Shown here piece after piece: positions 5,819 through 49,819 of a stretch of 64,000 nt of DNA; the stretch's first letter is position 1; every line of letters begins with the position of its first letter. Made by a program: the position numbers and the translations under genes. The notes under the pieces are model-generated. The model saw only the letters and a list, made by a program, of their open reading frames with translations. It searched no databases and had not been told where the DNA came from. Source of the stretch: Escherichia phage B9-1; the sequence record OQ420740.1, one strand, 5' to 3'.

Positions 5819-5874
5819 CTCAGTCTCTCTTGTTGTATTGTTGATAGGTGTATGAATGCTTTATAACTCACCTT

Positions 5875-20004: not shown

Positions 20005-20342
20005 GTTTGTGGAGAAATATCGTTAACTACGTGTGTGGCAATCCGACTCCTGAAGAGAAGGATGTTGTGATTCACGATTTTACTAAAAGATCTCGTGAAA
20101 AAGATCTACTGCTAACAAAGGTGACTGATAAAGATCCTGCAGTAGGGGACTGGGCAGGTTTTGCGTTTACATCGGACAAATACACCTTTAACAAAGGTGA
20201 CTACCTTGTTGTGGATTTTAACGAAGATATTGAGGGTGCTGAACCTTACTATCAAACCCTTATTGTTGCAGGGTGTGTTGATCTCTCTGCAGGCATGCAC
20301 AGTTTGATTCTTTTTGAGCTTGACTCTGAAGACCTTGAGTAG
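20001..20342 (+). CDS. Hypothetical protein (113 aa)
   Basis: Track ORF; overlaps helicase stop. Confidence 0.55.
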   Translation: MSLWRNIVNYVCGNPTPEEKDVVIHDFTKRSREKDLLLTKVTDKDPAVGDWAGFAFTSDKYTFNKGDYLVVDFNEDIEGAEPYYQTLIVAGCVDLSAGMHSLILFELDSEDLE

Positions 20343-20403
20343 TAAGATGTGAGTATAAAGGGGAGGCACTCCTCCCCACAAAAACTAAGGAGAGCACCAA
20401 ACG

Positions 20404-30185: not shown

Positions 30186-30222
30186 TTGACAATAGCGATA
30201 GGGCCTAATATAATGGCCCTAT
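30186..30222 (+). promoter_or_regulatory. sigma70-type promoter whose -10 is embedded in a perfect palindrome
   Basis: -35 TTGACA 30186-30191, 17-bp spacer, -10 TATAAT 30209-30214; palindrome ATAGGGCC-taatataat-GGCCCTAT 30198-30222. Confidence 0.6.
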
Positions 30223-30245
30223 CAAAACGAAAGGGTACCACAGCA

Positions 30246-30506
30246 ATGACCAAACAATATCAACGAATTAAAGCCAAGGTTAAGCCAGACTATCTGGAGA
30301 AGGACTCTGCTTTTCGGGACTGCACGGCAGATAAAGTTTACACAGGTTCCGTTCTGTTAAACGACGAATTTGAAGTGGATGTTCTTGGTAAAGAGGCCGT
30401 TATCGAAGATGACAACGGGGACTGTGTTTTCTGCACCACCCGTGAGCTGGAAGTCTTAGAATACTTCGGTGAAATCTTCAACTCATTAGATGACGAGGAA
30501 GCGTGA
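30246..30506 (+). CDS. Small Cys-containing protein, paralogue of 29928..30182 (~86 aa)
   Basis: Track ORF 30186..30506 starts on the promoter -35; ATG 30246 preferred; KPDYLEKDSAFRDCT...DDNGDCVFCT. Confidence 0.55.
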   Translation: MTKQYQRIKAKVKPDYLEKDSAFRDCTADKVYTGSVLLNDEFEVDVLGKEAVIEDDNGDCVFCTTRELEVLEYFGEIFNSLDDEEA

Positions 30507-36674: not shown

Positions 36675-36985
36675 TACTTGAAAATCCCTGGCACATCAAG
36701 TATAAGGAGGATTTCTAAAATGGACTTCCTCCTTTTGATATTTTACCTGGCCGGATATTTTAAAATTCTTAGAAAATCAGAAAATGGATCGAAAACTAAA
36801 ATGGATTTTTCAAGACAGGCGCGATAAGATGTGCTGCTCATTCTATCGTTCGCACCGTACTTTAAGTTACTATTCCAGATTTTCCGCACATACTCTCACC
36901 CTTCTACCAGGACTTTCCCAGCTTACCTTTGACCCTTTATAACAATAAACCCATTATTCTCAGTAGGTTTTGATACATCTCTCTC

Positions 36986-37151
36986 AGTACTCGATCTGTT
37001 TTTCGTTTCAAAGATTGAATTTTCTGAAAATTTTTCTCGATAAATTTCTTAGTACTCGATCTGTTTTTCGTTTTCTGAATCAGATTTTCTGGAAATCGTT
37101 CCGGAGCTCGACCTGAAATTTTTGGGGACGAAATCGATTTTTCGTTTTCGG
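36986..37151. repeat. AT-rich iteron-like direct repeats in non-coding DNA
   Basis: AGTACTCGATCTGTTTTTCGTTT at 36986-37008 and 37051-37073; related CTCGACCTGAAATTTTTGG 37107-37125 and CGAAATCGATTTTTCGTTTTCGG 37129-37151. Confidence 0.7.
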
Positions 37152-37282
37152 AAATGGATTTTTAAAATTTGTATATGGAAATACTTAAGGAGGTATTATT
37201 TTATATAGAATTGTCACGGTAGGTAATTAGCATGCTAACTAAATTTATGAAATGCGAAAAGTTCTCATTTAGAATTTTGAAT

Positions 37283-37896: not shown

Positions 37897-38094
37897 ATGA
37901 ACGCCTACGGAATTAAAGTACGTCGCAACACTCGCCAGGCCGTCACCGATCAAATGATTTGCCAGGTGGACGTAACCATCAACAACGGGCAAGGCCTTTA
38001 TAAATTCCGTCGCGGTCAGAGCTACACCCGGCAACAGCTTAATCGTTGCGCCCTGACAAAAGGCCAGATCAACCACTGGTTTAATAAAAAATAA
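37897..38094 (+). CDS. Small basic protein (65 aa)
   Basis: Track ORF; RBS AGAGAGGA. Confidence 0.5.
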   Translation: MNAYGIKVRRNTRQAVTDQMICQVDVTINNGQGLYKFRRGQSYTRQQLNRCALTKGQINHWFNKK

Positions 38095-38097
38095 GTA

Positions 38098-38126
38098 TTG
38101 ACATACAGTCTGACACCAAATACACT
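38098..38126 (+). promoter_or_regulatory. sigma70-type promoter
   Basis: -35 TTGACA 38098-38103, 17-bp spacer, -10 TACACT 38121-38126. Confidence 0.5.
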
Positions 38127-38158
38127 AAAAGCACAAAAGACACTAAGAGGATAAAATC

Positions 38159-38557
38159 ATGAAAACCACTACCTTTAATTTTGATAATGCGGACTTTTCT
38201 TTTTCTGATGTCAAGAACTGCCGCCGTGATCGTGGATTTTACAAGGCTTATAATCTGGTGGGCCTGGACGATGACAATAATTTGCACGAAGTAGCTGAGA
38301 TCCGGTATTATGCCGCCGCCAGCGGGAACACTCAATACTGTGTTTTTTGGATTCACGACAACAAGAACAATAAGTACGGTTATACTGGCGGGAAGGCGAG
38401 CGGTCACGGTTACGATAAAGCTAATGCAGCACTTGAGAGCGCATTAAATGCTATGGGGATCACTGCCAACGGCTGGATCTATGAAGAAGAGTTTTTGTCG
38501 GCACTTGCTAACCACCTGGGCTATAAAAAGCACATTGTAACATGCGCCCACGAATAA
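38159..38557 (+). CDS. Hypothetical protein (132 aa)
   Basis: Track ORF; RBS AAGAGGA. Confidence 0.6.
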   Translation: MKTTTFNFDNADFSFSDVKNCRRDRGFYKAYNLVGLDDDNNLHEVAEIRYYAAASGNTQYCVFWIHDNKNNKYGYTGGKASGHGYDKANAALESALNAMGITANGWIYEEEFLSALANHLGYKKHIVTCAHE

Positions 38558-38563
38558 AAATTG

Positions 38564-38620
38564 TTGACACGCTGCAAAATTCAAGTAAACTAATCACAAA
38601 AGGCGGGAATGTTTCCCGCC
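38564..38620 (+). promoter_or_regulatory. sigma70-type promoter plus 5' leader hairpin
   Basis: -35 TTGACA 38564-38569; weak -10 TAAACT ~38586; hairpin GGCGGGAA-tg-TTTCCCGCC 38602-38620 then AACACAAAGGA and ATG 38640. Confidence 0.5.
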
Positions 38621-38639
38621 AACACAAAGGAAAAAGATC

Positions 38640-39044
38640 ATGAATAAGAACGTACGCCGCATCATGAATGAACTGGCAAACGATGAAAAAATTATTGACA
38701 TGCATTTGATCAACATTTGCCGCCGTTGTGTAACATATAACAACCGCGCCGCAAAAGCGCGTGAGATGAACGCAAAAGGCACCTTAAAGCCCTTCCAGGT
38801 GGTGGTAAAGGCCATTAAAGATGTAACTAATACGGCAAATCAGGTACAGGGGAACACCAACGAAAGTACCAATATTGATCCGGCTTACATCATGAAACGG
38901 ATCCGGACCTGCAAGAACAAAGAGCAGGTGTATAACGTCATAGACTGGTTGGATTCCATGGGCGACGTGGTGTACAATAGGTTTTCTGCAGCTATCGAGA
39001 TCCAGCTTGACAGGTTGGACGGTAAAGTACTGAAAACTTACTAA
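38640..39044 (+). CDS. Hypothetical protein (134 aa)
   Basis: Track ORF. Confidence 0.6.
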   Translation: MNKNVRRIMNELANDEKIIDMHLINICRRCVTYNNRAAKAREMNAKGTLKPFQVVVKAIKDVTNTANQVQGNTNESTNIDPAYIMKRIRTCKNKEQVYNVIDWLDSMGDVVYNRFSAAIEIQLDRLDGKVLKTY

Positions 39045-39093
39045 GTTTATTTTTAGATGGCCTTGACTACAGGGCCATCAATAAAGTAAACTA
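39043..39093 (+). repeat. Conserved ~45-bp intergenic element, copy 1
   Basis: TAAGTTTATTTTTAGATGGCCTTGACTACAGGGCCATCAATAAAGTAAACT, starting on the stop codon; internal hairpin GATGGCC...GGCCATC. Confidence 0.7.
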
Positions 39094-39123
39094 ATCTCAG
39101 TTAAGCGAAAAAGGGGCTTTAAG

Positions 39124-39243
39124 ATGAGCACTACACGCCAATACACAAAGGTAACTATTATCGCCTGCGTTGTCGGTTACATCCTGGCGCAAATGTTAAT
39201 GAGTAGCGCTAACAGTTTTGCAAAATTTTTCTTAAATTTTTAA
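39124..39243 (+). CDS. Small hydrophobic peptide (39 aa)
   Basis: ORF below track cutoff, MSTTRQYTKVTIIACVVGYILAQMLMSSANSFAKFFLNF; weak RBS. Confidence 0.25.
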   Translation: MSTTRQYTKVTIIACVVGYILAQMLMSSANSFAKFFLNF

Positions 39244-39271
39244 TTGACAAGCTAACCCAAATCAGTATACT
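39244..39271 (+). promoter_or_regulatory. sigma70-type promoter
   Basis: -35 TTGACA 39244-39249, 16-bp spacer, -10 TATACT 39266-39271; then leader hairpin GGGAAAACTTCCC 39285-39297. Confidence 0.6.
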
Positions 39272-39322
39272 TAAACACGTAAACGGGAAAACTTCCCAGA
39301 ACACACAAAAGGAGAAAACACC

Positions 39323-39664
39323 ATGACTACTATGACCGCCGCAGAAAAAGCTATTCAGGTTGCCGCACTGAAAAAACAGATCGCAGACCTTGAGAACAAG
39401 ATCGATAACTTTGAAATCGACGAGGACAAGTACGACGAAAACTATGATGAATGGTTAGACGAGGTCTACGGCGAAATCATGATCGGAAACATTTCTTTTC
39501 TTCCGTCGCGTATCCTCAAGGAGCTAGATCCTATCGCTTACCGCTGCGGATTTAGCGACTACATCGACAGCCTGGATATTGAGGACGATGAAGAGTACCA
39601 AGAATTGCAAACAGAGTTGGAAGAAGCAAAAGAAGAGCTTGCAGAACTGGAAGAAAACGAGTAA
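39323..39664 (+). CDS. Highly acidic coiled-coil-like protein (113 aa)
   Basis: Track ORF; RBS AAGGAGA; D/E-rich, e.g. DEDKYDENYDEWLDE and DIEDDEEYQELQTELEEAKEELAELEENE. Confidence 0.6.
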   Translation: MTTMTAAEKAIQVAALKKQIADLENKIDNFEIDEDKYDENYDEWLDEVYGEIMIGNISFLPSRILKELDPIAYRCGFSDYIDSLDIEDDEEYQELQTELEEAKEELAELEENE

Positions 39665-39713
39665 GTTTATTTTTAGATGGCCTTGACTCCAGGGCCATCA
39701 ATAAAGTAAACTT
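39663..39713 (+). repeat. Conserved ~45-bp intergenic element, copy 2
   Basis: TAAGTTTATTTTTAGATGGCCTTGACTCCAGGGCCATCAATAAAGTAAACT, starting on the stop codon. Confidence 0.7.
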
Positions 39714-39750
39714 TACACTGTTAACACTGAACTAATGAGGAGTTAAAACC

Positions 39751-39996
39751 ATGGCAGCACTAATCACCAAATACTATGCCCCTACCAACACCAAAAGCGC
39801 CCGGATCATGGTAAAAGGCTTCGGACGTAAAAAGGTTTACACCTGGGATTATTCCCTAGACATGGAAGACAACTACACCAACGCGATGACCGATTTTATT
39901 AACGAGCTGAATACGCGGATCTTAACAAATTATAAAATTACCGACATTGCTTATATAGGTGAAGGCGGGATCTGTTTTGTAGGCATTGTGAAATAG
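39751..39996 (+). CDS. Hypothetical protein (81 aa)
   Basis: Track ORF; RBS GAGGAG. Confidence 0.55.
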   Translation: MAALITKYYAPTNTKSARIMVKGFGRKKVYTWDYSLDMEDNYTNAMTDFINELNTRILTNYKITDIAYIGEGGICFVGIVK

Positions 39997-40047
39997 TTAT
40001 TTTTTCGGTGGTCCTGGTTGCAGGGCCATCTATAAAAATAATTTACT
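39997..40047 (+). repeat. Diverged copy of the ~45-bp intergenic element
   Basis: TTATTTTTTCGGTGGTCCTGGTTGCAGGGCCATCTATAAAAATAATTTAC, directly after a stop codon. Confidence 0.5.
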
Positions 40048-40071
40048 AACACCATGAAAGGAGAAAGTAAC

Positions 40072-40425
40072 ATGATCAGCGGTGCAAGTTTTATTATTGG
40101 CGCTATTGCTACGGCTTTAATTGTAAACAAGATCCAATCCAAAAACGAAAAAGAGAGCAACGCCCTTGCAGAATATCCATTTTGGACATTTAACGATAAC
40201 GAAGATTATATTATAAAGTATAAAAATAAAGAAGGTGACCAAGTAACACCGCGACCGATCCCGGCTTACAAGATGCAGGAAACACTATACCGCCTGGAGG
40301 CGGGGGGCGCAAAAATTGTGGACTTTTGGGGATACGATCACACAGATCAGGAAGTTATAAAGCGCCGTATCCGGGCTATTCAGGCCAATATTGAAGTTAG
40401 CAAGGGGGGAATATATGAAGATTAA
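40072..40425 (+). CDS. Putative membrane-anchored protein (~117 aa)
   Basis: Track ORF 40054..40425; ATG 40072 after RBS AGGAGA; N-terminal helix ISGASFIIGAIATALIV. Confidence 0.55.
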   Translation: MISGASFIIGAIATALIVNKIQSKNEKESNALAEYPFWTFNDNEDYIIKYKNKEGDQVTPRPIPAYKMQETLYRLEAGGAKIVDFWGYDHTDQEVIKRRIRAIQANIEVSKGGIYED

Positions 40426-40612
40426 TTTTGAGAAGATTGTAAAGCGATCTCATGATTCCGAAGAGCTGCCGGAACGCCGCCAGCGTAACAATAAACTGAA
40501 TAAGCCAAAAAGATTTGGAAAGATCTGGCGAAATCATTATGATCGTAAATTGCCTGGCCTACTTTTGGAACGTGAACGACAGGCAGAACGATACCGCCAT
40601 AAAGACAAATAA
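40415..40612 (+). CDS. Small basic protein (~65 aa)
   Basis: Track ORF 40391..40612; ATG 40415 after GGGGGGA preferred. Confidence 0.45.
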   Translation: MKINFEKIVKRSHDSEELPERRQRNNKLNKPKRFGKIWRNHYDRKLPGLLLERERQAERYRHKDK

Positions 40613-40620
40613 CAACCAAC

Positions 40621-40647
40621 GCCCCGCCATTGTGCGGGGCTTTTTAT
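40621..40647 (+). terminator. Intrinsic terminator
   Basis: GCCCCGC-cattgt-GCGGGGC then TTTTTATTT. Confidence 0.75.
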
Positions 40648-40793
40648 TTCTATCCTACGAATAGCGCCCCTGGTTGGCCCTATAAGCGCCAAAAAGGCCC
40701 CCACCTATGCAATCCCCTTTCTTAACCTGAAAACATCGCCCAGGGCCGTTTTATGGCGTTAAAAATATTATTGACAGTGATTTTATTTAAAGC

Positions 40794-40821
40794 TTGACAT
40801 CTTAAACAGGTTAGCTATACT
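40794..40821 (+). promoter_or_regulatory. sigma70-type promoter
   Basis: -35 TTGACA 40794-40799, 16-bp spacer, -10 TATACT 40816-40821. Confidence 0.6.
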
Positions 40822-40853
40822 AACCACATCAAAGAGAGAAAGGAGTAAACGCC

Positions 40854-41114
40854 ATGCGTAAATTAAAAAATTTTGATAAGGTTGATGTTGTCCTGAATAA
40901 TTTTTACTACTGCAACAACAAGGCCATTTGGTGGCGTGATAGTTCCACCGATAAAGTCAAGGCGCGCTTTCTCCAGGGGCACTGGCAAGGCCGCCCAGTG
41001 ATTAAAATCATGGGGCAATTGGTAGCGTTTAAAAATTGCCGCCGTGTTGATGACGTTGAAGAGATCTTGAACATTTTACGCCACAATAATTTAAAAAATA
41101 GTGTTGACAAGTAA
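40854..41114 (+). CDS. Hypothetical protein (86 aa)
   Basis: Track ORF; RBS AAGGAG. Confidence 0.6.
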   Translation: MRKLKNFDKVDVVLNNFYYCNNKAIWWRDSSTDKVKARFLQGHWQGRPVIKIMGQLVAFKNCRRVDDVEEILNILRHNNLKNSVDK

Positions 41115-41160
41115 ATCTCGATAAGTATAATTAAACACACAGGCGGGAAAACTTCCCGCC
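41104..41160 (+). promoter_or_regulatory. Near-consensus sigma70 promoter plus 5' leader hairpin
   Basis: -35 TTGACA 41104-41109, 16-bp spacer, -10 TATAAT 41126-41131; hairpin GGCGGGAA-aac-TTCCCGCC 41142-41160; RBS AGGAGA; ATG 41189. Confidence 0.7.
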
Positions 41161-41188
41161 ACTAACAAAGAAAACAGGAGAAAATATC

Positions 41189-41812
41189 ATGACCACCGTT
41201 AACATTACCACAGGTTACAATTTATCTTTCGACGTGCTGACCGACGAACAAAAAGAAAAAGCCGTTGAAATGGTCCGCGAAAGAGAAGAACACAGCGGGG
41301 ATAACTTTTTTGCAGAAAGTGTAATTGAATACTATAAAGAATATGTTTTTCCAGAGTATGGCCTTGAAGATACCGAAGTACATTGGTCCGGCTTTTGGTG
41401 CCAGGGTGACGGCGCGTCAATCAGTGCTGAAAACGTTGATTTAGAAAAATTCTTGCGTAAAGTCAAATCTCTGACTAAATTCCGCTCAATTCGTAACTTG
41501 TTCGGCACAATGCACGATGGCGAGCTATCTGCAAGTGTTGAGCGTGATCCATATAGCCGCCATAGTCACGAAAACACTGTAAGCGGGTACATTGATACTA
41601 CATGGCTAGACCTGACAGCCAAGCAAGAAAGTAAGGTTGAAGAGCTGGAAGAGCTGATCACCGAGACGGTACGGGAGCTATCCCGCAAGGTTTATGTAGA
41701 CCTGGAGGAGGCCTATCTTGAACAGTTTACTACCGAAAACCTGATCGGCCTTATTGAAGCCAATGATTGGCGGTTTAATGTGGATGAATATGGGGAGATG
41801 AGTTTTTCATAA
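41189..41812 (+). CDS. Hypothetical acidic protein (207 aa)
   Basis: Track ORF; largest gene in the island; no motif recognised. Confidence 0.65.
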   Translation: MTTVNITTGYNLSFDVLTDEQKEKAVEMVREREEHSGDNFFAESVIEYYKEYVFPEYGLEDTEVHWSGFWCQGDGASISAENVDLEKFLRKVKSLTKFRSIRNLFGTMHDGELSASVERDPYSRHSHENTVSGYIDTTWLDLTAKQESKVEELEELITETVRELSRKVYVDLEEAYLEQFTTENLIGLIEANDWRFNVDEYGEMSFS

Positions 41813-41820
41813 ATAAAGTG

Positions 41821-41877
41821 TTGCAATAATCTAAAAACCTGCTATATTAAAACTCAAGGGGCGAGATGACTTGCCCC
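41821..41877 (+). promoter_or_regulatory. sigma70-type promoter plus 5' leader hairpin
   Basis: -35 TTGCAA 41821-41826, 16-bp spacer, -10 TATATT 41843-41848; hairpin GGGGC-gagatgactt-GCCCC 41858-41877. Confidence 0.6.
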
Positions 41878-41901
41878 ACACAAAACAAAGAGGATAACAT
41901 C

Positions 41902-42282
41902 ATGAAAAACACCACCAAGGCTATTGACACCGTTATGTTTAACCTGGTTACATTCCGTGAAGATATGAAAGATCTTCCACGTGAAACAGTGTGCGACCAT
42001 ATCGAAAACTATCGCAAACTTATTAAAGAATTGCCATTAAAACGAGATCAGTACGCGGCTAACGCTATGCTTAACGCCATGATCAAAAAGATGATCCAGT
42101 GTGATTTAACTCTGGCCTATGATTATGCAGGTGGTCGTTTTGCAGTATACAATCAGCCCGTGCCTGGTATGAGCACCACCGAAGAATTGCACGCGCTCAA
42201 TCTAAAACAAGACGTGTGGGATAATATGCCCCGCGTGGTGGTGTGGGCAGAAAGCGGAAAGATTTACGGCGATAATTTTTAA
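41902..42282 (+). CDS. Hypothetical protein (~127 aa)
   Basis: Track ORF 41866..42282; ATG 41902 after RBS AAGAGGA preferred. Confidence 0.6.
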   Translation: MKNTTKAIDTVMFNLVTFREDMKDLPRETVCDHIENYRKLIKELPLKRDQYAANAMLNAMIKKMIQCDLTLAYDYAGGRFAVYNQPVPGMSTTEELHALNLKQDVWDNMPRVVVWAESGKIYGDNF

Positions 42283-42348
42283 TCAGGTAACAGGCGGCGG
42301 CATATTTGCCGCCCTATTGTTAAGAAGAATTGTAAGAGGGTACATAGA

Positions 42349-42720
42349 ATGGAATTTATTATTTTGGCTATATTAGTTGCCTTGTTTAACGCCTGGATCG
42401 CTGGCAAGATGGGCAGATCTGCCTTTTTATGGTTTATTATATCTATCTTCCTGGGAGTGGTTGCAACTATTGTATTGGTTATCCTTGCAATTGTTGATAA
42501 GGGGAATAATAGAAAGGGTAAAGTATTTTCAGACCTGTACGACGCTCAAACATTTGTCAACGCCTACTACAGCGATCTTCCAGTCTCCCTACGTTGCAGC
42601 CTTGCACAACAGGTTTTCGATGAAGCTAAAACCAGAGATCACGCCCATGAGATATGTTTAACTGAGGCGGATCGCCTATTTGAGAGGAATAGAAAATATG
42701 TGGACCAACCGTTTAAATAA
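42349..42720 (+). CDS. Putative membrane protein (123 aa)
   Basis: Track ORF; two hydrophobic helices near N-terminus. Confidence 0.6.
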   Translation: MEFIILAILVALFNAWIAGKMGRSAFLWFIISIFLGVVATIVLVILAIVDKGNNRKGKVFSDLYDAQTFVNAYYSDLPVSLRCSLAQQVFDEAKTRDHAHEICLTEADRLFERNRKYVDQPFK

Positions 42721-42770
42721 TGCCACGTTAATTAATCCCTTTAGTGAAGATTTGAAGCCAGCCGCCTGGC

Positions 42771-42956
42771 GTGATGGATTCAATAACGAAAGCTTTATTT
42801 TCAGGCCTGATCTTAAGGAATTTTATAACAATGGATCGAACAACGACAGAGATAATTTTTCTCGTAATGTGCGTGGCGATAATACTCCTGGGGGCCATTG
42901 CAAACCACGTCACTGCTAACAGGAGGGAAGGGGGAGACGATGACACCCAAGGATAA
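42771..42956 (+). CDS. Possible small membrane protein (61 aa); frame choice ambiguous
   Basis: Track ORF with hydrophobic segment IIFLVMCVAIILLGAIA; competing ORF 42680..42919 in another frame. Confidence 0.3.
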   Translation: MMDSITKALFSGLILRNFITMDRTTTEIIFLVMCVAIILLGAIANHVTANRREGGDDDTQG

Positions 42957-43059
42957 GCCCCGCACCGATAAGGCGCGCCGTGTTATGGTATGGCTTGAGA
43001 TCATCGCCCTTGAAATATTGTTAGGCGTAGGGATGTATTTTATCGCTGTAAGTAACTGA
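42940..43059 (+). CDS. Small membrane peptide (39 aa)
   Basis: ORF below track cutoff, MTPKDKPRTDKARRVMVWLEIIALEILLGVGMYFIAVSN; strong RBS AGGAGGGAAGGGGGAG; followed by terminator. Confidence 0.4.
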   Translation: MTPKDKPRTDKARRVMVWLEIIALEILLGVGMYFIAVSN

Positions 43060-43063
43060 TAAC

Positions 43064-43096
43064 GGCCCCCGATCCCTGGGGGCCTAACTTTTTAAA
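43064..43096 (+). terminator. Intrinsic terminator
   Basis: GGCCCCC-gatccct-GGGGGCC then TAACTTTTTAAATTTTTT. Confidence 0.75.
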
Positions 43097-43113
43097 TTTT
43101 TTCTCCCTGGGTG

Positions 43114-43165
43114 TTGCAATCCGATCCAGAATATGGATAATAACAATCAACGGGGAGCAATCCCC
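43114..43165 (+). promoter_or_regulatory. sigma70-type promoter plus 5' leader hairpin
   Basis: -35 TTGCAA 43114-43119, 16-bp spacer, -10 GATAAT 43136-43141; hairpin GGGGAGCAATCCCC 43152-43165 then ACCAACACAAAG. Confidence 0.6.
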
Positions 43166-43196
43166 ACCAACACAAAGACTAAAAAGGAGAAACAAA

Positions 43197-43397
43197 ATGA
43201 GCAACAATATCCGCGTTATTAACTTCAAAAAAGAAGAAAAAATTGCCGTGCTGATTGACGGTCAAGAAATCTTTAAAGGCGATTATGAAGATCATCAGGT
43301 AGCGATCAGTATTACCCGCGTGATTGGTTACCATAATTTTTACCCCCAAGGCGCTGAGGCAGCAGTAAAACGAATTAAAGAGATTGTAGGCCTGTAA
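43197..43397 (+). CDS. Hypothetical protein (66 aa)
   Basis: Track ORF; RBS AAGGAGA. Confidence 0.6.
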   Translation: MSNNIRVINFKKEEKIAVLIDGQEIFKGDYEDHQVAISITRVIGYHNFYPQGAEAAVKRIKEIVGL

Positions 43398-43399
43398 AA

Positions 43400-43444
43400 T
43401 TTATTTTTAGATGGCCTTGACTCCAGGGCCATCAATAAAGTAAA
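43400..43444 (+). repeat. Conserved ~45-bp intergenic element, copy 3
   Basis: TTTATTTTTAGATGGCCTTGACTCCAGGGCCATCAATAAAGTAAA, immediately after stop codon at 43395-43397. Confidence 0.7.
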
Positions 43445-43481
43445 TTTAAACCCTGTTAAAATAATCAGTGCAAAAGGAGTA

Positions 43482-43787
43482 ATGATCATGTTTATCCAGG
43501 CTAATAATCTTTATTTCTTTGATGGTCAGATCGTAGACGGCGTGGAGGTGGAAATCACCGGGTGCCCTGGCGGTCAGGTTATGACTTTTCGGAATAATGC
43601 CTTTGATGATTCTCATATCGTTATGAGAATGGAAGTTAGTAAGCTGGACGATAAGAAAACACTCATTGATTATTCCGTGAAAGATCATCCAGACTACCAC
43701 ATGATCTATGGCGATTTGTGCATTGTTGACCGTGACAAGGTGGGCGGCATTGTGATCGCTATTGTGAACGATGTTTTCTCTAAATAA
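43482..43787 (+). CDS. Hypothetical protein (101 aa)
   Basis: Track ORF; RBS AAGGAG; ATG 43488 equally possible. Confidence 0.6.
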   Translation: MIMFIQANNLYFFDGQIVDGVEVEITGCPGGQVMTFRNNAFDDSHIVMRMEVSKLDDKKTLIDYSVKDHPDYHMIYGDLCIVDRDKVGGIVIAIVNDVFSK

Positions 43788-43927
43788 TTCCGGCAAATGA
43801 TGCAAAATAAGGCCCCTGGCAGGGCCTGCAGCGATATAATCACATAAAGGCTATGCGGTTGCATGGCCTTTATTATTTTAGCGTTACAGCTGCCCCCAAG
43901 GCGCTTAAAAAATTTTTAAAGAAGTAC

Positions 43928-43955
43928 TTGCATCAAGTCCTACAATATGGATAAT
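43928..43955 (+). promoter_or_regulatory. sigma70-type promoter
   Basis: -35 TTGCAT 43928-43933, 16-bp spacer, -10 GATAAT 43950-43955; same ATATGGATAATAA block as the 43114 promoter. Confidence 0.55.
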
Positions 43956-44016
43956 AAAGGGTGTCGGGGGGCGGTGAGGCCTCCAATCATTAACCAGATA
44001 GATAGGAGTTAAAACC

Positions 44017-44301
44017 ATGGCTATTGTTACCGTTGGCGATGTAGTAGAAATGGAAGCCAAATACTTAAAAGCGGGTATGCATATCATACGGAATGATCAA
44101 GAATTGTTATTAACCATGGTTGAATATAATCCCGGTCAGGATTATCCTAGCGTTGACTACTTTTTCCAGTATGTTGATGAAGAATTAAAAGAGGATGAGG
44201 CTTATCAGGGTGAATTTTGCAATTTCTTTTGCTCTGACGAGGTTGTAAAAGTTATTTATCAACCTGGTGTACCTTTCCCGTTGCACGCCATCAATAAATA
44301 A
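44017..44301 (+). CDS. Hypothetical protein (94 aa)
   Basis: Track ORF; RBS TAGGAG. Confidence 0.6.
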   Translation: MAIVTVGDVVEMEAKYLKAGMHIIRNDQELLLTMVEYNPGQDYPSVDYFFQYVDEELKEDEAYQGEFCNFFCSDEVVKVIYQPGVPFPLHAINK

Positions 44302-44367
44302 GCCTGGCGGGGCCGAAAAGGCCCCTCCTGAAATTATGAAAAAAAAAATAAAGAGGGGTGAATCATC

Positions 44368-44604
44368 ATGATTGAACAAATTAAAAGCACTAAACCGAAC
44401 GTTAACGGCAATGTTTCTCACTTTATTGGTGATAATGAAAGAGGGACACCGTACGCTGCGGTAACAGTTCAACCGAACGGGGATTATTGGTTTACTGTAT
44501 ATGGATCTTATTCTTTTGGGCGTCCGGTGCATGATAGAATTTTAAAAGTAGCTAATCCGACCGGGAAGAATATCACAGCAGAAAAATTTTTTGAAAATAG
44601 TTGA
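44368..44604 (+). CDS. Hypothetical protein (78 aa)
   Basis: Track ORF; RBS AGAGGGG. Confidence 0.55.
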   Translation: MIEQIKSTKPNVNGNVSHFIGDNERGTPYAAVTVQPNGDYWFTVYGSYSFGRPVHDRILKVANPTGKNITAEKFFENS

Positions 44605-44651
44605 CATGACCGTATAAGACTGTAGTATATAAATCAAAGGGGGCAAGCCCC
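44601..44651 (+). promoter_or_regulatory. sigma70-type promoter (-35 overlaps upstream stop codon) plus leader hairpin
   Basis: -35 TTGACA 44601-44606, 16-bp spacer, -10 TAGTAT 44623-44628; hairpin GGGGGCAAGCCCC 44639-44651 then ACCAACCACAAAGAGGA. Confidence 0.55.
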
Positions 44652-44676
44652 ACCAACCACAAAGAGGATAAAAATC

Positions 44677-44856
44677 ATGGCTATTATTGCAAAGACCGAG
44701 ATTGTAGGGTTAGATTCTATTCTCCTGGCATATGAGGAGGCTATAGAAATGTATGTGGTTTCCTATGGTGAGTATATCCGTGAATATAAATCTATTGATC
44801 TAGCTTTTGAATGTTATATTCGCCAGGTCAATAAAGCATATGATGATTATCGTTAA
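44677..44856 (+). CDS. Small hypothetical protein (59 aa)
   Basis: ORF just below track cutoff, MAIIAKTEIVGLDSILLAYEEAIEMYVVSYGEYIREYKSIDLAFECYIRQVNKAYDDYR; preceded by promoter, hairpin and RBS AAGAGGA. Confidence 0.45.
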   Translation: MAIIAKTEIVGLDSILLAYEEAIEMYVVSYGEYIREYKSIDLAFECYIRQVNKAYDDYR

Positions 44857-44948
44857 AATAGTTTGACAACAAACAACACCGTCTAACAAAGCATAATACA
44901 TAAGGTGGTGGAATGGTCCGCCACCTGGAGCAAGAAGAGGAAAACAAG

Positions 44949-45053
44949 ATGAAACAGAAATTAATTGATGCGATGATCCTGGTTATTGCCCTGGGTATTG
45001 GCCTGATTGCAACCATGGCTAATATGATCTTGTCTTCCAACGGTATCGGATAA
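44949..45053 (+). CDS. Small membrane peptide (34 aa)
   Basis: ORF MKQKLIDAMILVIALGIGLIATMANMILSSNGIG; RBS AGAAGAGGA; preceded by hairpin GGTGGTGGAATGGTCCGCCACC. Confidence 0.3.
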   Translation: MKQKLIDAMILVIALGIGLIATMANMILSSNGIG

Positions 45054-45062
45054 GGTGGGCAA

Positions 45063-45278
45063 ATGATCACCAACAAAACAGGCAAAACAGAATTTTTACG
45101 CAACTTGCAGATCGGCAAGCCTGAGATCTGGTATTGCACTAAAACACCACGTGACGAAATGAAAGATTTTACCGCCACGCTGAAGCGGGTAAAGATATCT
45201 ATCACGCAGAAAAAAGCCTTGATAGTGGTTGAAGGTGAGATCCCTCAAGCCGTTGTTATAGTTGAGCGTACAGCATAG
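45063..45278 (+). CDS. Hypothetical protein (71 aa)
   Basis: Track ORF; RBS AAGGTGGG. Confidence 0.5.
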   Translation: MITNKTGKTEFLRNLQIGKPEIWYCTKTPRDEMKDFTATLKRVKISITQKKALIVVEGEIPQAVVIVERTA

Positions 45279-45369
45279 TTTAATTTATACAGATACCCGA
45301 AAATTAACCAACAAAGCATAAACAGGCGGTTACTGCCGCCTTAAACGTAGCAGAAAGAGGATAGACACA

Positions 45370-45654
45370 ATGAAAAAGATGATCGCAGTGGTTGCCCTGG
45401 TTGTTGGACTTAATGCGCCTGTAATGGCTAAAGAGTTGGCAAAAGAGGTAGATCTAACTGATATCCATGCCGTCAATCAAATCGGGGTTACTTATCGCCT
45501 ATGCCTTGCCGCAAAAACTTTTAAGGACGGCACTACAGAGTACTACGGATTCGAGGGCGTCCGGTGCGGTGAACTTGCTCGCGACCTTAAAGAAGATCCA
45601 GACCTGGAGGATCTGCCGATAACCGTAAACGGGAAAACTTACGTGAACCGTTAA
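45370..45654 (+). CDS. Small secreted protein with signal peptide (94 aa)
   Basis: Track ORF; N-terminus MKKMIAVVALVVGLNAPVMAKE; RBS AGAGGA; upstream hairpin GGCGGTTACTGCCGCC. Confidence 0.6.
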   Translation: MKKMIAVVALVVGLNAPVMAKELAKEVDLTDIHAVNQIGVTYRLCLAAKTFKDGTTEYYGFEGVRCGELARDLKEDPDLEDLPITVNGKTYVNR

Positions 45655-45656
45655 CC

Positions 45657-45791
45657 ATGAGAAAGATAATTATTACCATAGGGATCGTGGCGGCAATGTT
45701 GGCGATCTTTCCCCTTATGGTTAGGTATGTGCTGATCAGTGTTGTCCTGGTAGTCAGCGATCTAATGTTATATATTAACTCATTGTTTTAG
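45657..45791 (+). CDS. Small membrane peptide (44 aa)
   Basis: ORF MRKIIITIGIVAAMLAIFPLMVRYVLISVVLVVSDLMLYINSLF, directly after previous stop. Confidence 0.3.
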   Translation: MRKIIITIGIVAAMLAIFPLMVRYVLISVVLVVSDLMLYINSLF

Positions 45792-45799
45792 GTGGAATA

Positions 45800-45991
45800 A
45801 TGACAGCAGAAGAAGTTAAAAAAGTACTGGCAGTACTGCGCTACCATAATCACAGAAAGGTAATAGATGATCCTGATTATGTAGATTCAAGCCTAGAAGA
45901 GGATACACTACAAGCTATCAGCCATATGCAAGAATTGTTTAAGCGTATGACAGAGAAGAACAGATCCGACTACATAGGCGAAAAAATATAA
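45800..45991 (+). CDS. Hypothetical protein (63 aa)
   Basis: Track ORF; RBS AGGTGG. Confidence 0.5.
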   Translation: MTAEEVKKVLAVLRYHNHRKVIDDPDYVDSSLEEDTLQAISHMQELFKRMTEKNRSDYIGEKI

Positions 45992-46051
45992 TCCTTAAAT
46001 ACTATAAAGCAGGGCTTGCAACGGTCCTGTTTTTTGTTACACTTGTTTCAC

Positions 46052-46100
46052 GGGTGGCACCTGGCGACGGGGGGAGACAATCACCGGGCCTGCCTGTCAT
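46052..46100 (-). repeat. Inverted copy of the GC-rich element found at 37283-37490
   Basis: Reverse complement ATGACAGGCAGGCCCGGTGATTGTCTCCCCCCGTCGCCAGGTGCC aligns closely with 37436-37490. Confidence 0.6.
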
Positions 46101-46119
46101 ATAAAAACTATAAAAACCG

Positions 46120-46173
46120 TTGACACCTGCCAGGCGGTGGGGTAACATTTATCTTGAAGGGGCAAAAGTGCCC
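46120..46173 (+). promoter_or_regulatory. sigma70-type promoter plus leader hairpin
   Basis: -35 TTGACA 46120-46125, 17-bp spacer, -10 TAACAT 46143-46148; hairpin GGGGCAAAAGTGCCC 46159-46173 then ACACAACAACC. Confidence 0.5.
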
Positions 46174-46202
46174 ACACAACAACCAGAAGAGAGGAAAACG
46201 CC

Positions 46203-46475
46203 ATGTTAGGCTGGATTAACCAAGAAGTCGAATCACGTTTTAACGCTATTTGGGATCTCATCGAAAAAGAGGACGGAACATCAAGCCCTTATCTCAATAA
46301 TCTTGAATTCCATTTCGTGGAAGCGATGAACGCAGAACATGATCACGAAGGTGGTGCGGACGAGTTCGCTAAAGGGTATGGCTTCAACAATGCCAACGAA
46401 ATGATCGAGGCGGTTGTACTCCAGGCTGAGGAAGATTATCAATTAAAAACGCTTGAATTCTGCCGCCGTAAGTAA
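46203..46475 (+). CDS. Hypothetical protein (90 aa)
   Basis: Track ORF; RBS AGAGAGGA. Confidence 0.6.
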   Translation: MLGWINQEVESRFNAIWDLIEKEDGTSSPYLNNLEFHFVEAMNAEHDHEGGADEFAKGYGFNNANEMIEAVVLQAEEDYQLKTLEFCRRK

Positions 46476-46537
46476 TAAGATAATGACACGGGCCAAAAGG
46501 CCCACTAAACCAGGACCACATAAAGAGGAAAAACATC

Positions 46538-46801
46538 ATGAAACGTCTGGATCAGCTCAAACTAGTTCAGTACATGGCTTACAAAATTCTTGAAGTCCAA
46601 AAAGGTAGCAAAAAAGAAGTTTGCGAGAAAGCTTACAAGATCTTTACTCGCAAAAAAGACGATTGGATGTTACGCCAGACTAAAAAGGCTGATATCTTGG
46701 GGTGCCTGGAAGAAGAGATCCGGCTTGAAGAACAAGAAGAGATCCGCCGTAGTGAGGCAGATTATCAGGCAGCTTGGGAAAACTGGATGAGCAACAAATA
46801 A
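46538..46801 (+). CDS. Hypothetical basic protein (87 aa)
   Basis: Track ORF; RBS AAGAGGA; preceded by hairpin GGGCCAAAAGGCCC 46490-46503. Confidence 0.6.
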   Translation: MKRLDQLKLVQYMAYKILEVQKGSKKEVCEKAYKIFTRKKDDWMLRQTKKADILGCLEEEIRLEEQEEIRRSEADYQAAWENWMSNK

Positions 46802-46867
46802 TACAACAAGCTACATGGTCAGGGGCAATAAAGCCCCTTGATCACATAAAAATTATGCTATCCTTGG

Positions 46868-46896
46868 TTGACAGGGATCGGCAGTTTTGCTATATT
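46868..46896 (+). promoter_or_regulatory. sigma70-type promoter
   Basis: -35 TTGACA 46868-46873, 17-bp spacer, -10 TATATT 46891-46896. Confidence 0.6.
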
Positions 46897-46945
46897 CTTT
46901 TTTGAAGGGAAGTTGTAAGAAAATTAACTAAGAGGTAAAAACACC

Positions 46946-47365
46946 ATGAACATTAAATCTGATAATCCGGCATATAGCTTTGATAACGCTTTTTGTCACG
47001 GTCCGGCGGCGAAAGGATTCGAAATCGATGGTAAACTAGTTATTGTTAATGTTGACGGGGAAGAGGTTGCAGTATATCCGGTGGCAGACGTTAAAAGCCG
47101 TCTACAATGCCGCATGGATGTTACCGCCTACCAGCTTGATCCGGTCCGGGTAGTTGCCCTAGTCCTGGAAGAAGAAATTAAAGCAATGCACCACAGCAAC
47201 AAGTTTATTGGTGACGCTCAAGATAATATGCAGGTATGCCGCCATAAAGTTAATGAAGTACTTAAAGAGTACGGCTATAAGGATTTAATGATCAAGCGTG
47301 ATGAAAAATTCCGTTACCGTAACGACCTGGCAAATCGGATTTTTGAAATATACGAATCATTATAA
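46946..47365 (+). CDS. Hypothetical protein (139 aa)
   Basis: Track ORF; RBS AAGAGG; last gene of rightward island. Confidence 0.65.
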   Translation: MNIKSDNPAYSFDNAFCHGPAAKGFEIDGKLVIVNVDGEEVAVYPVADVKSRLQCRMDVTAYQLDPVRVVALVLEEEIKAMHHSNKFIGDAQDNMQVCRHKVNEVLKEYGYKDLMIKRDEKFRYRNDLANRIFEIYESL

Positions 47366-47384
47366 TTTCTTAACTGAATTATCA

Positions 47385-47410
47385 AGGGGCTTAAAGGCCC
47401 CTTTCTTTTT
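47385..47410 (+). terminator. Intrinsic terminator
   Basis: AGGGG-cttaaagg-CCCCT then TTCTTTTT. Confidence 0.7.
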
Positions 47411-47412
47411 GT

Positions 47413-49819
47413 CTGCTCTTCTCCTACCATAAACGGCCCTACCTGGCAAGTGGAATAATTGACTAGCCATCAATCCCACACACTGTACAAATATACATAT
47501 AAAATAACTATTGCATAATCTTTCACTGTGTGGTAGCAGGGCCATTTTTACCCGTTTTCTCTCCCAAAAGTGCACGTAATGCCGCTATTGCACAAATTTT
47601 AACCTGATGCACATCTCCAATATCTTGTCAACAACTAAAAATCTTTATAAGTCATACACTTACACAACATAGAAAGCGTGTCCTACGCGAAAAATCGAGT
47701 ATAACTATAGCCGCCAGATCTCAGAATTCACGTACGAACACCATTCTATAGTCTGCAAAGTATTTATTCCAACCACAGAATAACGGAATAGTCAATACCT
47801 GCATAAAATAATTATTCGTGTAAACTGCATAACATAAATCAGCTCAGGTGTCAACATTTTTCGTAAACAGTCCGAAATTATCACGATGAGTTATCATAAA
47901 CAGAGAAATCTTTAGTCGTCTAATGTTTACTGTACATTACTATACTGACTGGAATCATTAGATGACTAAGAGAAAGATAAGAAATAATTAATAATGTAAT
48001 TGTTTTACCTGTAACAATAAGGCAACTATGCAAACGAATGGCATGGCGCGACGGAGTCGCGACATAATATAAAAGCAGTAACAATCACCCCCGTGATAGT
48101 TTTTCTGCAATCTATTACTCAGATCATAGTTGCCTTGTATTTAGTTAATCATGACATAACAAGCAAGGCAACTATAGATCTTCTAATAGTTGCCCTGCTT
48201 TTATATTATGTCATAGATTGTTAGCTTGTTAATTGTTTTCATGCAAACGAATGGCATGGCTTATCATCTCTGTGTAAACTGTTCAGGCGTAAACAGTCTA
48301 TGCGTAAACAGTGAGATATGGAATAGTAACAGCCGTTATTGTGTCATATTGTGTGACATTGTGTCCGGTGTCTGGTGTCCAGTGTGTCAGACAAGTTTTT
48401 CTCCTCTTTGTCAAGTGCTGCATGAAAAATTTACAAACTGGTATGGTAGCATTTTTGCGGCCCTGTTTACATTCAGGAATGTATGTATAATCCTTGTTGT
48501 GTGGGCGTTTAGACGTCTGGACGGTCAGAAGTCTGCAGGTCAATATCTAATCTATTGGTTGCTAACTATATCCCACACAAATAGTAAGAAATATAATTGT
48601 TATATGCGTAAACAGTAACCCATGTTATCAATCCCTGCATGTATCGCCAGTGGTGCGCATAATGGGTATTATGTTAAATTGCCCGTAATGATAACCATTC
48701 TCACAATGATAGGTATTCTCATTCACTCCCACAAGATAGATTGCAAATGTTGTGCCACTGTGTGAACGGCCTGGCCTATTAATTTGCCTCACTGCCTCGA
48801 TATTTGAGAATTATTATAAAAATGAGAAGTATTCCCATTCCGTCCGCCTGGCAGCACTCCTGTAGGACAGGCACAAAATCGGGGTATAACTGGACCTGTT
48901 CAGATATTTCTGGCTGACTCTTCAGGCCTGTGTGGGAAAAGCCAACCTCTCCGGCGGCGGGGAGGGGTCAATTAAAAAATTTACGTGGTGTATGAAGCGC
49001 TCTTCAGGTAAGGCAGGTATTATGGGATGAAACCCTCTTCAGATGATGATATTTGTGGGTGTGATATTTGCTGGAAAGCCAGATATGACGGGACTCCCGG
49101 CAGGGGTGGGGTAGTACAGACAGGGAAAATGTGGGAATGTGATGGAGTAAATTGATCAGGTAGGTAGGATATGGAATATGTTACAAGTATGTTAAATATG
49201 GAGGTAGGATATTTGTAAGATTTGTGTGTAAAATCAAATACTTAAGTGGTGTTGTGGTATTTTCTATAAATAATTCAAGTTTAATAGGTGATATTTGTCT
49301 CCATCCACTTTGTGTGGTAAACAGATTCTAATTGAATTGGTTTACAAGTGTATATAAAGTATACAAATTAAAGATATAAGAAACCCCCCTCCCCCTTCGG
49401 CTACCATTCACCTTTTCCTCTGACTGGTACTTAAACACTTATTCAGACTCTTCAGGTTATCACCCATATACTATATGGCAGTGACTGGTGTCCTCCGGCC
49501 CCTCTTTCGTCACCCGTCCGCTTCGCCATGCTAATGCCATAGCCAAATGTTCGGTTGTTCACCCTGTTCACTCAGGTGTATCTCCATACCCCTTCAAACC
49601 GAAGAGAACAGAAAACCCGAATTACTCGGTAAAAGAAAAGAGAAGAACTTAATTTTATCAAGATAGGCAAGAATGTCAAGGGATGACTGCTCACTAAACA
49701 AGCAAACAGTCATGTGTGGTGGGTAAGTAACTGTGTTGGTAGGAAATTTAGTTGAAAGATGTTATAGGTGCCTCCAGAACCTTAGCTGGGCAGCTAAACC
49801 TGCAAAGCAGACTTGTGTG
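47413..49819. other. 2.4-kb non-coding, repeat-dense region between convergent gene blocks
   Basis: No convincing ORF; CGTAAACAGT x4, ATGCAAACGAATGGCATGGC x2, AAGGCAACTAT x4 in alternating orientation, palindrome GTCGCGAC, CTCTTCAGG x4. Confidence 0.7.

Follow-up and report, generated by a model that had tools for sequence, protein, structure and literature searches.

Escherichia phage B9-1 (sequence record OQ420740.1; the 64,000 nucleotides (nt) analysed are called the window, and positions are counted from its first letter) carries at about 37.8-47.4 kb an array of small + strand genes, in which a promoter, a GC-rich hairpin and a short leader recur as a unit before ten start codons. The hairpins are a real, non-random and conserved element, and we describe their anatomy, their excess over chance, the conservation of their pairing, the paralogous family to which they belong and the recombination breakpoints that fall in the units. 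From these comparisons we consider it somewhat probable that the hairpins are one part of a repeated early-gene expression cassette in a variable, ORFan-rich region, functionally analogous to the promoter-early stem-loop (PeSL) cassettes of T4-like phages, and that this cassette belongs to a hairpin family common to phAPEC8-like and phi92-like phages. The region 38000-46600 is 92-96% identical to rV5-like coliphages (genus Vequintavirus); 239 phage records match, and Escherichia phage S127 BCL3 is the closest (95.8%).

The ten cassettes

Read as a unit, each cassette would open with an AT-rich tract and a host-type sigma70 promoter; some 10 A-rich bases that include the start site would come next, then a GC-rich hairpin and an A/C linker poor in U and G, and a strong Shine-Dalgarno (SD) sequence and ATG would close it. 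The ten copies are listed below, with the fold z score of the leader against its own shuffles and, for two hairpins, the score in the covariance model described further on.

Cassette 1: 38564-38642, + strand; -35 box TTGACA at 38564-69, -10 box TAAACT at 38586-91; hairpin GGCGGGAATGTTTCCCGCC at 38602-38620; leader AACACAA, then SD; ATG at 38640; fold z -4.26; covariance model 46.6 bits.
Cassette 2: 39244-39325, + strand; promoter TTGACA-16-TATACT; gap of 13 nt; weak hairpin GGGAAAACTTCCC at 39285-39297; leader AGAACACACAA; SD AAGGAG; ATG at 39323; fold z -1.18.
Cassette 3: 41104-41191, + strand; consensus promoter TTGACA-16-TATAAT; hairpin GGCGGGAAAACTTCCCGCC at 41142-41160; leader ACTAACAAAGAAAA; SD AGGAG; ATG at 41189; fold z -4.66; covariance model 40.4 bits.
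Cassette 4: 41821-41904, + strand; promoter TTGCAA-16-TATATT; hairpin GGGGCGAGATGACTTGCCCC at 41858-41877 with one G.U pair; leader ACACAAAACAA; SD AGAGGA; ATG at 41902; fold z -4.79.
Cassette 5: 43114-43199, + strand; promoter TTGCAA-16-GATAAT; hairpin GGGGAGCAATCCCC at 43152-43165; leader ACCAACACAAAGACTAAA; SD AAGGAG; ATG at 43197; fold z -3.08.
Cassette 6: 43928-44019, + strand; promoter TTGCAT-16-GATAAT; hairpin GGGGGGCGGTGAGGCCTCC at 43966-43984; SD AGGAG; ATG at 44017.
Cassette 7: 44601-44679, + strand; promoter TTGACA-16-TAGTAT; hairpin GGGGGCAAGCCCC at 44639-44651; leader ACCAACCACAA; SD AGAGGA; ATG at 44677; fold z -0.68.
Cassette 8: 44863-44951, + strand; -35 box TTGACA, -10 box CATAAT at 44892-97; hairpin AGGTGGTGGAATGGTCCGCCACCT at 44903-44926; SD AAGAGGA; ATG at 44949; fold z -3.96.
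Cassette 9: 46120-46205, + strand; promoter TTGACA-17-TAACAT; hairpin GGGCAAAAGTGCCC at 46160-46173; leader ACACAACAACCAGA; SD; ATG at 46203; fold z -1.69.
Cassette 10: 46453-46540, + strand; weak promoter TTGAAT-17-TAAGAT; hairpin GGGCCAAAAGGCCC at 46490-46503; leader ACTAAACCAGGACCACATAAA; SD GAGGA; ATG at 46538; fold z -2.05.

Eight of these hairpins had been named in a first-pass annotation of the sequence, which located them correctly: seven of the sequences it quoted are exact, the one at 41858-41877 reads GGGGCGAGATGACTTGCCCC, and all eight fold, with free energies (dG) from -4.0 (39285) to -13.6 kcal/mol (41858). Two further modules of the same build, with hairpins at 43966-43984 and 44903-44926, were absent from that annotation and are included here as cassettes 6 and 8. 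The placement of the hairpins behind -10 hexamers, as then described, stands for seven of the eight, whose promoters score 9-12 of 12, but is less certain for the hairpin at 46490, with its weak TTGAAT-17-TAAGAT (8 of 12). Among all ten cassettes, eight reach sigma70-like scores of 9-12/12 and cassette 10 scores 8/12; cassette 3, at 41104, has a perfect TTGACA-16-TATAAT, and the promoter spacer of cassette 8 is 23 nt in B9-1 versus 17 nt in some relatives. The 15 nt on the 5' side of the -35 box are 77% A+T.

The close spacing between -10 box and hairpin was likewise found, with 8-13 nt separating the -10 box from the first paired base instead of the 6-12 nt first given; cassette 8 is an outlier at 5 nt, and the mode is 10 nt (44 of 69 unique Vequintavirus modules). 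The linkers from hairpin to SD are rich in A (58%) and C (27%), with 9% G and 6% T where the region as a whole has 26% T (p = 6e-9); in the 3' flanks of the hairpins T makes up 6-7%. As a composition, the A/C-rich leader of the earlier description is real; part of the motif quoted for it, ACACAAAG, is the 5' edge of the SD (AAAGAGGA or AAGGAG). In all predicted folds of the 5' untranslated regions (UTRs) the hairpin is the sole stable element and the SD is unpaired. The cassettes extend between the stop codon of one gene and the SD and start codon of the next, in intergenic regions that measure 62-137 nt. Cassettes 2 and 3 share 74% identity across 66 nt, and a true terminator (43064-43084) precedes cassette 5.

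The gene behind cassette 4 has its conserved, SD-preceded start at 41902, giving a product of 126 aa. Its longest open reading frame (ORF) begins at an in-frame ATG at 41866, within the hairpin loop, and the records of S127 BCL3 and ECP32 annotate the gene from there; most relatives do not have this ATG.

The pattern exceeds chance. A module was counted as strict if it had a promoter scoring 9/12 or more, a hairpin with dG of -5 kcal/mol or lower starting 6-14 nt past the -10 box, and an SD and start codon within 45 nt. Six strict modules occur in 36-48 kb, whereas 200 dinucleotide-preserving shuffles of it gave 0.065 on average and never more than 2; rV5-like loci of 10-15 kb contain 5-8 each, and unrelated phage loci a single one in about 170 kb. 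Five of the ten leaders fold clearly better than their own shuffles (z -3.1 to -4.8). The leaders of 39285, 44639 and 46159, which have the shortest hairpins, and that of 43966 are not individually significant. The argument is carried by the ensemble and by the comparison with relatives.

Conserved pairing and a family across phage subfamilies

The comparison set consisted of about 20 rV5-like genomes and contigs, 87-98% identical over the modules. GenBank phage records were used because scans of IMG/VR and of metagenomes yielded few relatives: the protein-anchored IMG/VR scan gave two close loci only, the promoter-pattern scan of IMG/VR ten stretches, and the metagenome scan five loci, including one duplicate. 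The hairpin is retained in nearly every haplotype of each module, with a few variants weakened to about -3 to -5 kcal/mol. Loop columns are variable in 64% of cases and stem columns in 31% (p = 2e-4). The 53 distinct ortholog variants of the ten hairpins have together lost 103 kcal/mol relative to the B9-1 copies, versus 295 kcal/mol for an equal number of random substitutions, and none of 200 simulations came down to the observed loss. At cassette 6 (43966), 15 haplotypes with differing stems (GGGG/CCCC, GGGGG/CCCCC, GGAGG/CCTCC, GGGGGC/GCCTCC) and differing loop lengths all remain between -7.9 and -12 kcal/mol, and in one relative hairpin 44903 has been swapped for a different member of the family. 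The structural conservation on which the first-pass annotation had staked its proposal is thus present in the relatives, and it acts on pairing, not on sequence.

The same cassette occurs in another subfamily. In Escherichia phage tuntematon (Phapecoctavirus, Stephanstirmvirinae) it precedes nearly all small genes of the early array; there a promoter TTGACA-16/17-TAAnnT and a conserved GTATCACATAG are followed by a hairpin, GGGCGGGAA..TTCCCGCC or GGGCGGCAATGGTGCCGCTC, and, after a short A-rich leader, by SD and ATG. The strict definition yields 17 modules over 20 kb of tuntematon sequence and 11 over 18 kb from phi92. A blastn search with one module matched 139 phage records, which are mainly phAPEC8-like and phi92-like coliphages together with their relatives on Klebsiella, Salmonella and Serratia. 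The B9-1 hairpins at 38602 (GGCGGGAAtgtTTCCCGCC) and 41142 (GGCGGGAAaacTTCCCGCC) are members of this GGCGGGAA..TTCCCGCC family, and in a covariance model built from 22 family hairpins they score 46.6 and 40.4 bits; 44903 and 39285 score weakly.

The covariation check across related phages, which had been named as a way to examine the hairpins, was positive within the bounds of its alignment. MAFFT misplaced the 3' arms of GGCGGCA-type hairpins and was replaced by a covariance-model alignment, which is biased towards the modelled structure. In that alignment 93.9% of cells are paired and six of nine pairs have changed on both sides, with counts such as GC:68 and CG:17 for one pair and GC:52, GU:23 and AU:9 for another; compensatory G-C to C-G swaps are thus found within the GGCGGGAA..TTCCCGCC family. 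The covariation score was 0.151, compared with 0.082 in shuffles (0 of 500 reached it) and at most 0.070 when the partners were slid, statistics that are inflated because paralogues and orthologues are not independent.

Some Vequintavirus isolates have a phAPEC8-type cassette at the position of cassette 8 (locus L014, 10218-10256; locus L039, 7997-8035). Its hairpin is of the GGCGGGAA family, hairpin and leader together read GCGCGGGAATACTTCCCGCC..GAGGGTAGAATCATG, and the leader/start region GAGGGTAGAATCATG matches the tuntematon module at 10541-10620 of locus L043. This likeness suggests an exchange of cassettes between the subfamilies.

Recombination and the setting of the array

The gene content of the array varies from isolate to isolate among the relatives, whose records label nearly all of its genes hypothetical. 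All ten proteins tested (nine encoded in the array, and gp11 at 10818-11717) fell into PHROGs of function unknown, and no Pfam domain was found in the nine array proteins scanned; the proposal of the rV5 genome paper that gp11 is a homologue of T4 Srd was not confirmed by Pfam or PHROGs. In its sequence and gene content, the 37.8-47.4 kb array appears to resemble the variable, ORFan-rich early regions of large virulent phages.

Among the approximately 20 relatives, indel breakpoints fall in the repeated regulatory pieces, with 11-61 nt of shared sequence (39092 to 39653/64, 39706 to 40021, 40766-76, 44933-64, 46515-31 and 46839 to 47385). Some of them involve a sister cassette, class B, which is a 63-nt direct repeat:

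39042-39104, + strand: class B cassette.
39662-39724, + strand: class B cassette.
43396-43458, + strand: class B cassette.
40001-40045, + strand: diverged class B copy.

Class B is ordered as stop codon, T-run, a hairpin GATGGCC..GGCCATC with the -35 box TTGACT in its loop, and a -10 box TAAACT; the Murica record annotates two of the copies as terminators. The segment 39092-39653/39664, comprising two genes and cassette 2, is absent from ECP32 and one metagenomic contig, with an overlap of 49-61 nt between two class B repeats, and 39706-40021 is absent from 241Ecol014PP; in all three the class B deletions run exactly from copy to copy. ECP32 also has a 219-nt gene inserted in cassette 10, at its leader, where 17 nt of leader/SD sequence are shared. 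A 246-nt gene absent from B9-1 is driven by cassette 8 in several relatives, and its junction lies in 32 nt of shared SD/start sequence. S127 BCL3 carries a 171-nt gene with its own promoter exactly between the tandem -35 boxes at 40770 and 40794 (locus L011, about 5770-6030). In B9-1 these tandem boxes, ATTGACAgtgattttatttaaagcTTGACA at 40766-40800, look like the scar of a cassette deletion.

Two similar hairpins (..AGGGGC..GCCCCT..) at 46816-46844 and 47384-47404 stand on either side of the gene 46946-47365 and its promoter. In four relatives precisely this segment is missing, with an overlap of 18 nt, which points to a hairpin-to-hairpin deletion. The class C hairpin itself is not where most mapped junctions fall; these lie in a promoter, a leader/SD or a class B repeat. 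From the compared sequences, a role as crossover sites at the DNA level appears to be the best-documented function of the cassettes.

GC hairpins are present in nearly every intergenic region of the array, and their position relative to the promoter varies: ten, those of the cassettes, follow the -10 box, four lie around the -35 box, one (30197-30223) is around a -10 box, and those at 42293, 44309 and 45324 have no promoter. Others are true terminators with T-runs that lie upstream of a promoter (40621, 43064, 43844 and 47384), and the hairpin at 46816 also counts as a terminator in this position.

Two further sites were noted outside the array. At 30186-30248, a promoter TTGACA-17-TATAAT has its -10 box within the loop of the hairpin GATAGGGCC-TAATATAAT-GGCCCTATC (-15.9 kcal/mol), which corresponds to the PeSL subclass 'overlapping the -10 box'. 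At 20340-20406, a hairpin GGGGAGGCACTCCTCCCC (-12.6 kcal/mol) is followed by a leader ACAAAAACTAAGGAG before the gene at 20404; ahead of the hairpin stands GAGTATAAA, a sequence similar to the T4-late-like motif that has been discussed for rV5. Because this hairpin follows such a motif, the hairpin-plus-leader design may extend beyond sigma70 promoters.

Three direct repeats of about 47-55 nt each, with a spacing of 65-74 nt and the core TTAGTACTCGATCTGTTTTTCGTTTT, are located at 36977-37162, within gene-poor 36.9-37.4 kb; they could be iteron-like or regulatory. The 1.6 kb or so at 47400-49000, between the + strand array and a - strand array, is without convincing ORFs, includes an exact 20-nt repeat ATGCAAACGAATGGCATGGC at 48028 and 48241, and is probably the 'non-coding' box in the drawing of the rV5 genome paper. 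More than 20 GenBank records (MG0656xx) named 'Campylobacter phage' are 92-93% identical to the present rV5-like region, and the two that were fetched (L041 and L042) bear the mark UNVERIFIED; by this identity they are probably mislabelled coliphage genomes.

Function of the hairpins and relation to known systems

What we propose on transcription starts, mRNA stabilisation and attenuation we infer from the anatomy of the cassettes. Host sigma70 RNA polymerase would initiate at a purine 7-8 nt past the -10 box, 2-4 nt ahead of the hairpin; a C-A step is present at the predicted start position in most cassettes. With such a start, each primary early transcript would open with a near-terminal stem-loop, and the local transcript would have to include the hairpin, because the U-poor linker cannot hold another -10 box. 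The stem-loop would slow 5'-end-dependent attack by RppH and RNase E, the unstructured, U-poor stretch would keep the SD open and remove RNase E-type AU sites, and the leader as a whole would free translation from the upstream context. In read-through transcripts the same hairpins would be intercistronic and might act as weak attenuators or as barriers to 3' exonucleases. At the DNA level the repeated cassettes would serve as crossover points for the gain, loss and swap of small genes.

The first-pass annotation had proposed that a 5'-terminal stem-loop protects the mRNA. The promoter geometry predicts a hairpin near the 5' end, but not a strictly terminal one. With the start set 7-8 nt past the -10 box, at a purine following a pyrimidine, the predicted unpaired 5' tails of cassettes 1-10 are 4, 6, 3, 2, 3, 3, 3, -1, 3 and 2 nt. 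RppH and RNase E need at least 2 unpaired 5' nt and prefer at least 3 (PMC8833179), and RNase E is able to scan beyond simple stem-loops (PMC9943677). Since the predicted tails of 2-4 nt suffice for RppH and RNase E and the latter scans past stem-loops, the geometry is borderline for 5'-end protection. We rank resistance to 5' decay first among the possible RNA-level roles, with reservations; a hairpin close to the 5' end, an unstructured leader poor in U and a strong SD would make a fitting design for an mRNA that withstands 5'-end-dependent decay and cleavage by RNase E and is still translated efficiently.

Several observations weigh against the proposed cassette function as a whole. Tails of the predicted length still leave RppH and RNase E access, and the scanning of RNase E is little hindered by simple stem-loops (PMC9943677). 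Similar GC hairpins located around the -35 box, around the -10 box or without a promoter cannot be 5'-terminal, and four promoters in the array (37817, 38098, 40794 and 46868) have no hairpin. Stem columns (31% variable) do not differ in sequence conservation from the neighbouring non-coding columns (34%), and the covariation statistics are subject to the non-independence given above. G.U pairs in minimum-energy folds are equal between the strands (32 vs 31). Published start-site, half-life or transcriptome data for Vequintavirinae or Phapecoctavirus were not found in the literature.

Three other explanations have to be weighed against the cassette reading. One, which has been put forward for the PeSL stem-loops, is that the hairpins are transcription attenuators or insulators that damp read-through from the many upstream promoters and so prevent over-expression of distal genes, their presence in the local transcript being incidental. 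We regard this as unlikely, even though a PeSL stem-loop cut lacZ expression as strongly as rrnB T1 (PMC2839356), the annotators of ASO2A and Alma labelled orthologous hairpins rho-independent terminators, and similar promoterless hairpins stand directly after stop codons. The explanation is weakened because the hairpins have no U-tract (3' flank 6-7% T), while the true terminators of the array (40621, 43064, 43844 and 47384) carry T-runs; because a terminator behind a promoter would abort its own transcript; and because the tight 10-nt spacing from the -10 box is left unexplained. None of the ten hairpins was among the + strand terminator-like sites, where 40621, 43064 and 43844 were present.

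Another explanation, to which we give little probability, makes the hairpin or palindrome a protein-binding site, either in RNA, for a boxB/N-like antiterminator or a translational regulator, or in DNA, as an operator at +3 to +22 that shuts off the early promoters jointly. Arms and loops differ freely: within one genome the arms of the cassettes are wholly different (GGGCC, GGGGAG, GGCGGG, AGGTGGTGG) and always self-complementary, and the loops are hypervariable at 3-9 nt, so that the spacing of half-sites varies. Together with the lack of a boxA-like motif nearby and of an Rfam match, this makes a protein-binding site unlikely, despite the recurrence in two subfamilies of the GGCGGGAA..TTCCCGCC sequence, not just its pairing, and of the conserved 10-nt segment ahead of the hairpin (GTATCACATAG or TAAACAC), and despite a place just past the start site that is typical of operators. 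The sequence likeness is accounted for by recombination between repeats. BoxA-like + strand matches were absent from 38-47 kb and at chance level in the window-wide count, and in Rfam 15 nothing reached the gathering score, with three chance hits below the threshold. The related suggestion of the first-pass annotation that the shared leader is a recognition site found no support: the leader is biased in composition, and its likeness is explained by recombining repeats.

The hairpins might also have no RNA function; the GC palindromes would then persist through their part in recombination, which they would promote or accompany as crossover hot spots like those of PeSL minicircles, and would be spread along with the gene cassettes. 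The indel breakpoints in the cassettes, the replacement of hairpin 44903 by another family member in one relative, the cassette common to different subfamilies and the lack of a clear G.U strand asymmetry in the minimum-energy folds would fit. Yet most junctions are outside the class C hairpins, pairing is kept through indels and compensatory changes, and homology-driven recombination requires identity, not self-complementarity; we consider this explanation, too, very unlikely. On the strand question, model-aligned sense-strand rows show 35 G.U vs 13 A.C, and the sense RNA folds more stably than the antisense in 67 of 89 unique hairpins; a crude column count of G.U vs A.C (19 vs 20) is noisy owing to the alignment. 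Selection on the sense RNA, as opposed to a DNA palindrome, is only modestly supported, because the minimum-energy G.U counts are equal between strands.

A dimeric-repressor operator would have half-sites of fixed sequence and spacing, whereas the arms here differ among cassettes and the spacer runs from 3 to 9 nt. Two candidates were rejected. RNase III sites were dismissed because the stems, at 4-10 bp, are too short for this enzyme. As minus-strand terminators, only two of the ten hairpins would have a T-rich tail on that strand, and none of the phAPEC8-type copies.

An extension of the cassette reading, which we regard as quite improbable in its two versions taken together, is that the common 5' structure of some 10-20 early transcripts per genome is a tag. 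The tag would either exempt early mRNAs from a phage-induced acceleration of RNase E-dependent decay of host mRNA, or be recognised by a phage factor dedicated to the joint control of all early genes. If this were true, the GGCGGGAA..TTCCCGCC hairpin, together with the conserved 10-nt segment ahead of it that is likewise common to two subfamilies, would be a recognition element, not a generic structure.

Among known systems, the cassettes most resemble PeSL cassettes, as described from the T4-like phages RB49/phi1, PST and nt-1 (Arbiol et al. 2010, PMC2839356; Comeau et al. 2014, PMC4122927). These combine an AT-rich tract and an early promoter of sigma70 consensus type with a polyG/polyC stem-loop, followed by an SD and a start codon, and fall into five subclasses by the position of the stem-loop, including 'downstream of the -10' (PMC2839356). 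They are found in hyperplastic ORFan regions, where recombination mediates gene shuffling (PMC2839356; PMC4122927). The AT-rich tract, the sigma70 promoter, the G-run/C-run stem-loop of variable position, the ORFan-rich region and the breakpoints in the cassettes are all found here. In contrast to PeSL, the lineages are Vequintavirinae and Stephanstirmvirinae and not T4-like, and the likeness is one of layout; the dominant class has its hairpin fixed about 10 nt after the -10 box, inside the predicted transcript; the hairpin sequence family spans subfamilies; and the leader is markedly U-poor. On this comparison we take the cassette to be of a PeSL-like kind, in lineages where it has been undescribed so far. 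We found no paper applying the PeSL concept to rV5-like or phAPEC8-like phages, and the rV5 genome paper lists 33 promoters and 20 terminators without mentioning the promoter-hairpin arrangement.

Other systems are less close. The 5' UTRs of ompA and papA and the stem-loop that opens T7 phi10/gene 10 transcripts are 5'-terminal stabilisers, and such stem-loops have essentially no unpaired 5' nt. The cassettes share with them a GC-rich hairpin near the predicted first nucleotide, an unstructured leader, a strong SD and conservation of structure over sequence, but differ in the 2-4 unpaired nt predicted and in the presence of the same hairpins at non-terminal positions. Intrinsic terminators, as which such hairpins are annotated in MZ726793 and OV101294, are likewise short, GC-rich intergenic stem-loops, whereas the hairpins here have no 3' U-tract, follow a promoter and stand directly before an SD. 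The lambda nut boxB resembles them in its 5-bp GC stem, in the A-rich loop of some copies (GGGCCAAAAGGCCC) and in lying downstream of early promoters; it differs in that the loops here are unconserved, there is no boxA, many copies precede single genes, and new promoters follow real terminators instead of read-through.

Existing genome records mislabel the cassette hairpin as a terminator. The ASO2A record places a 'rho-independent terminator' directly after a 'promoter' feature, and the Alma record also labels the orthologous hairpins in this way; recognition of the cassette explains such odd annotation of a 'promoter' and then a 'terminator' before a gene. Myoviruses of the rV5-like and phAPEC8/phi92-like groups, whose early regions vary by isolate, are often candidates for use in coliphage therapy and biocontrol. 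The cassettes would explain the shuffling of small genes inside each of these phage subfamilies and from one to another, and they offer a compact natural expression module in which a UP-like tract and a consensus promoter are joined to a 5' hairpin, a leader free of U and a strong SD. The PeSL concept would thereby be extended past the T4-like phages, which suggests that promoter/stem-loop cassettes may be a general device of large virulent phages that use the host sigma70 polymerase early in infection.

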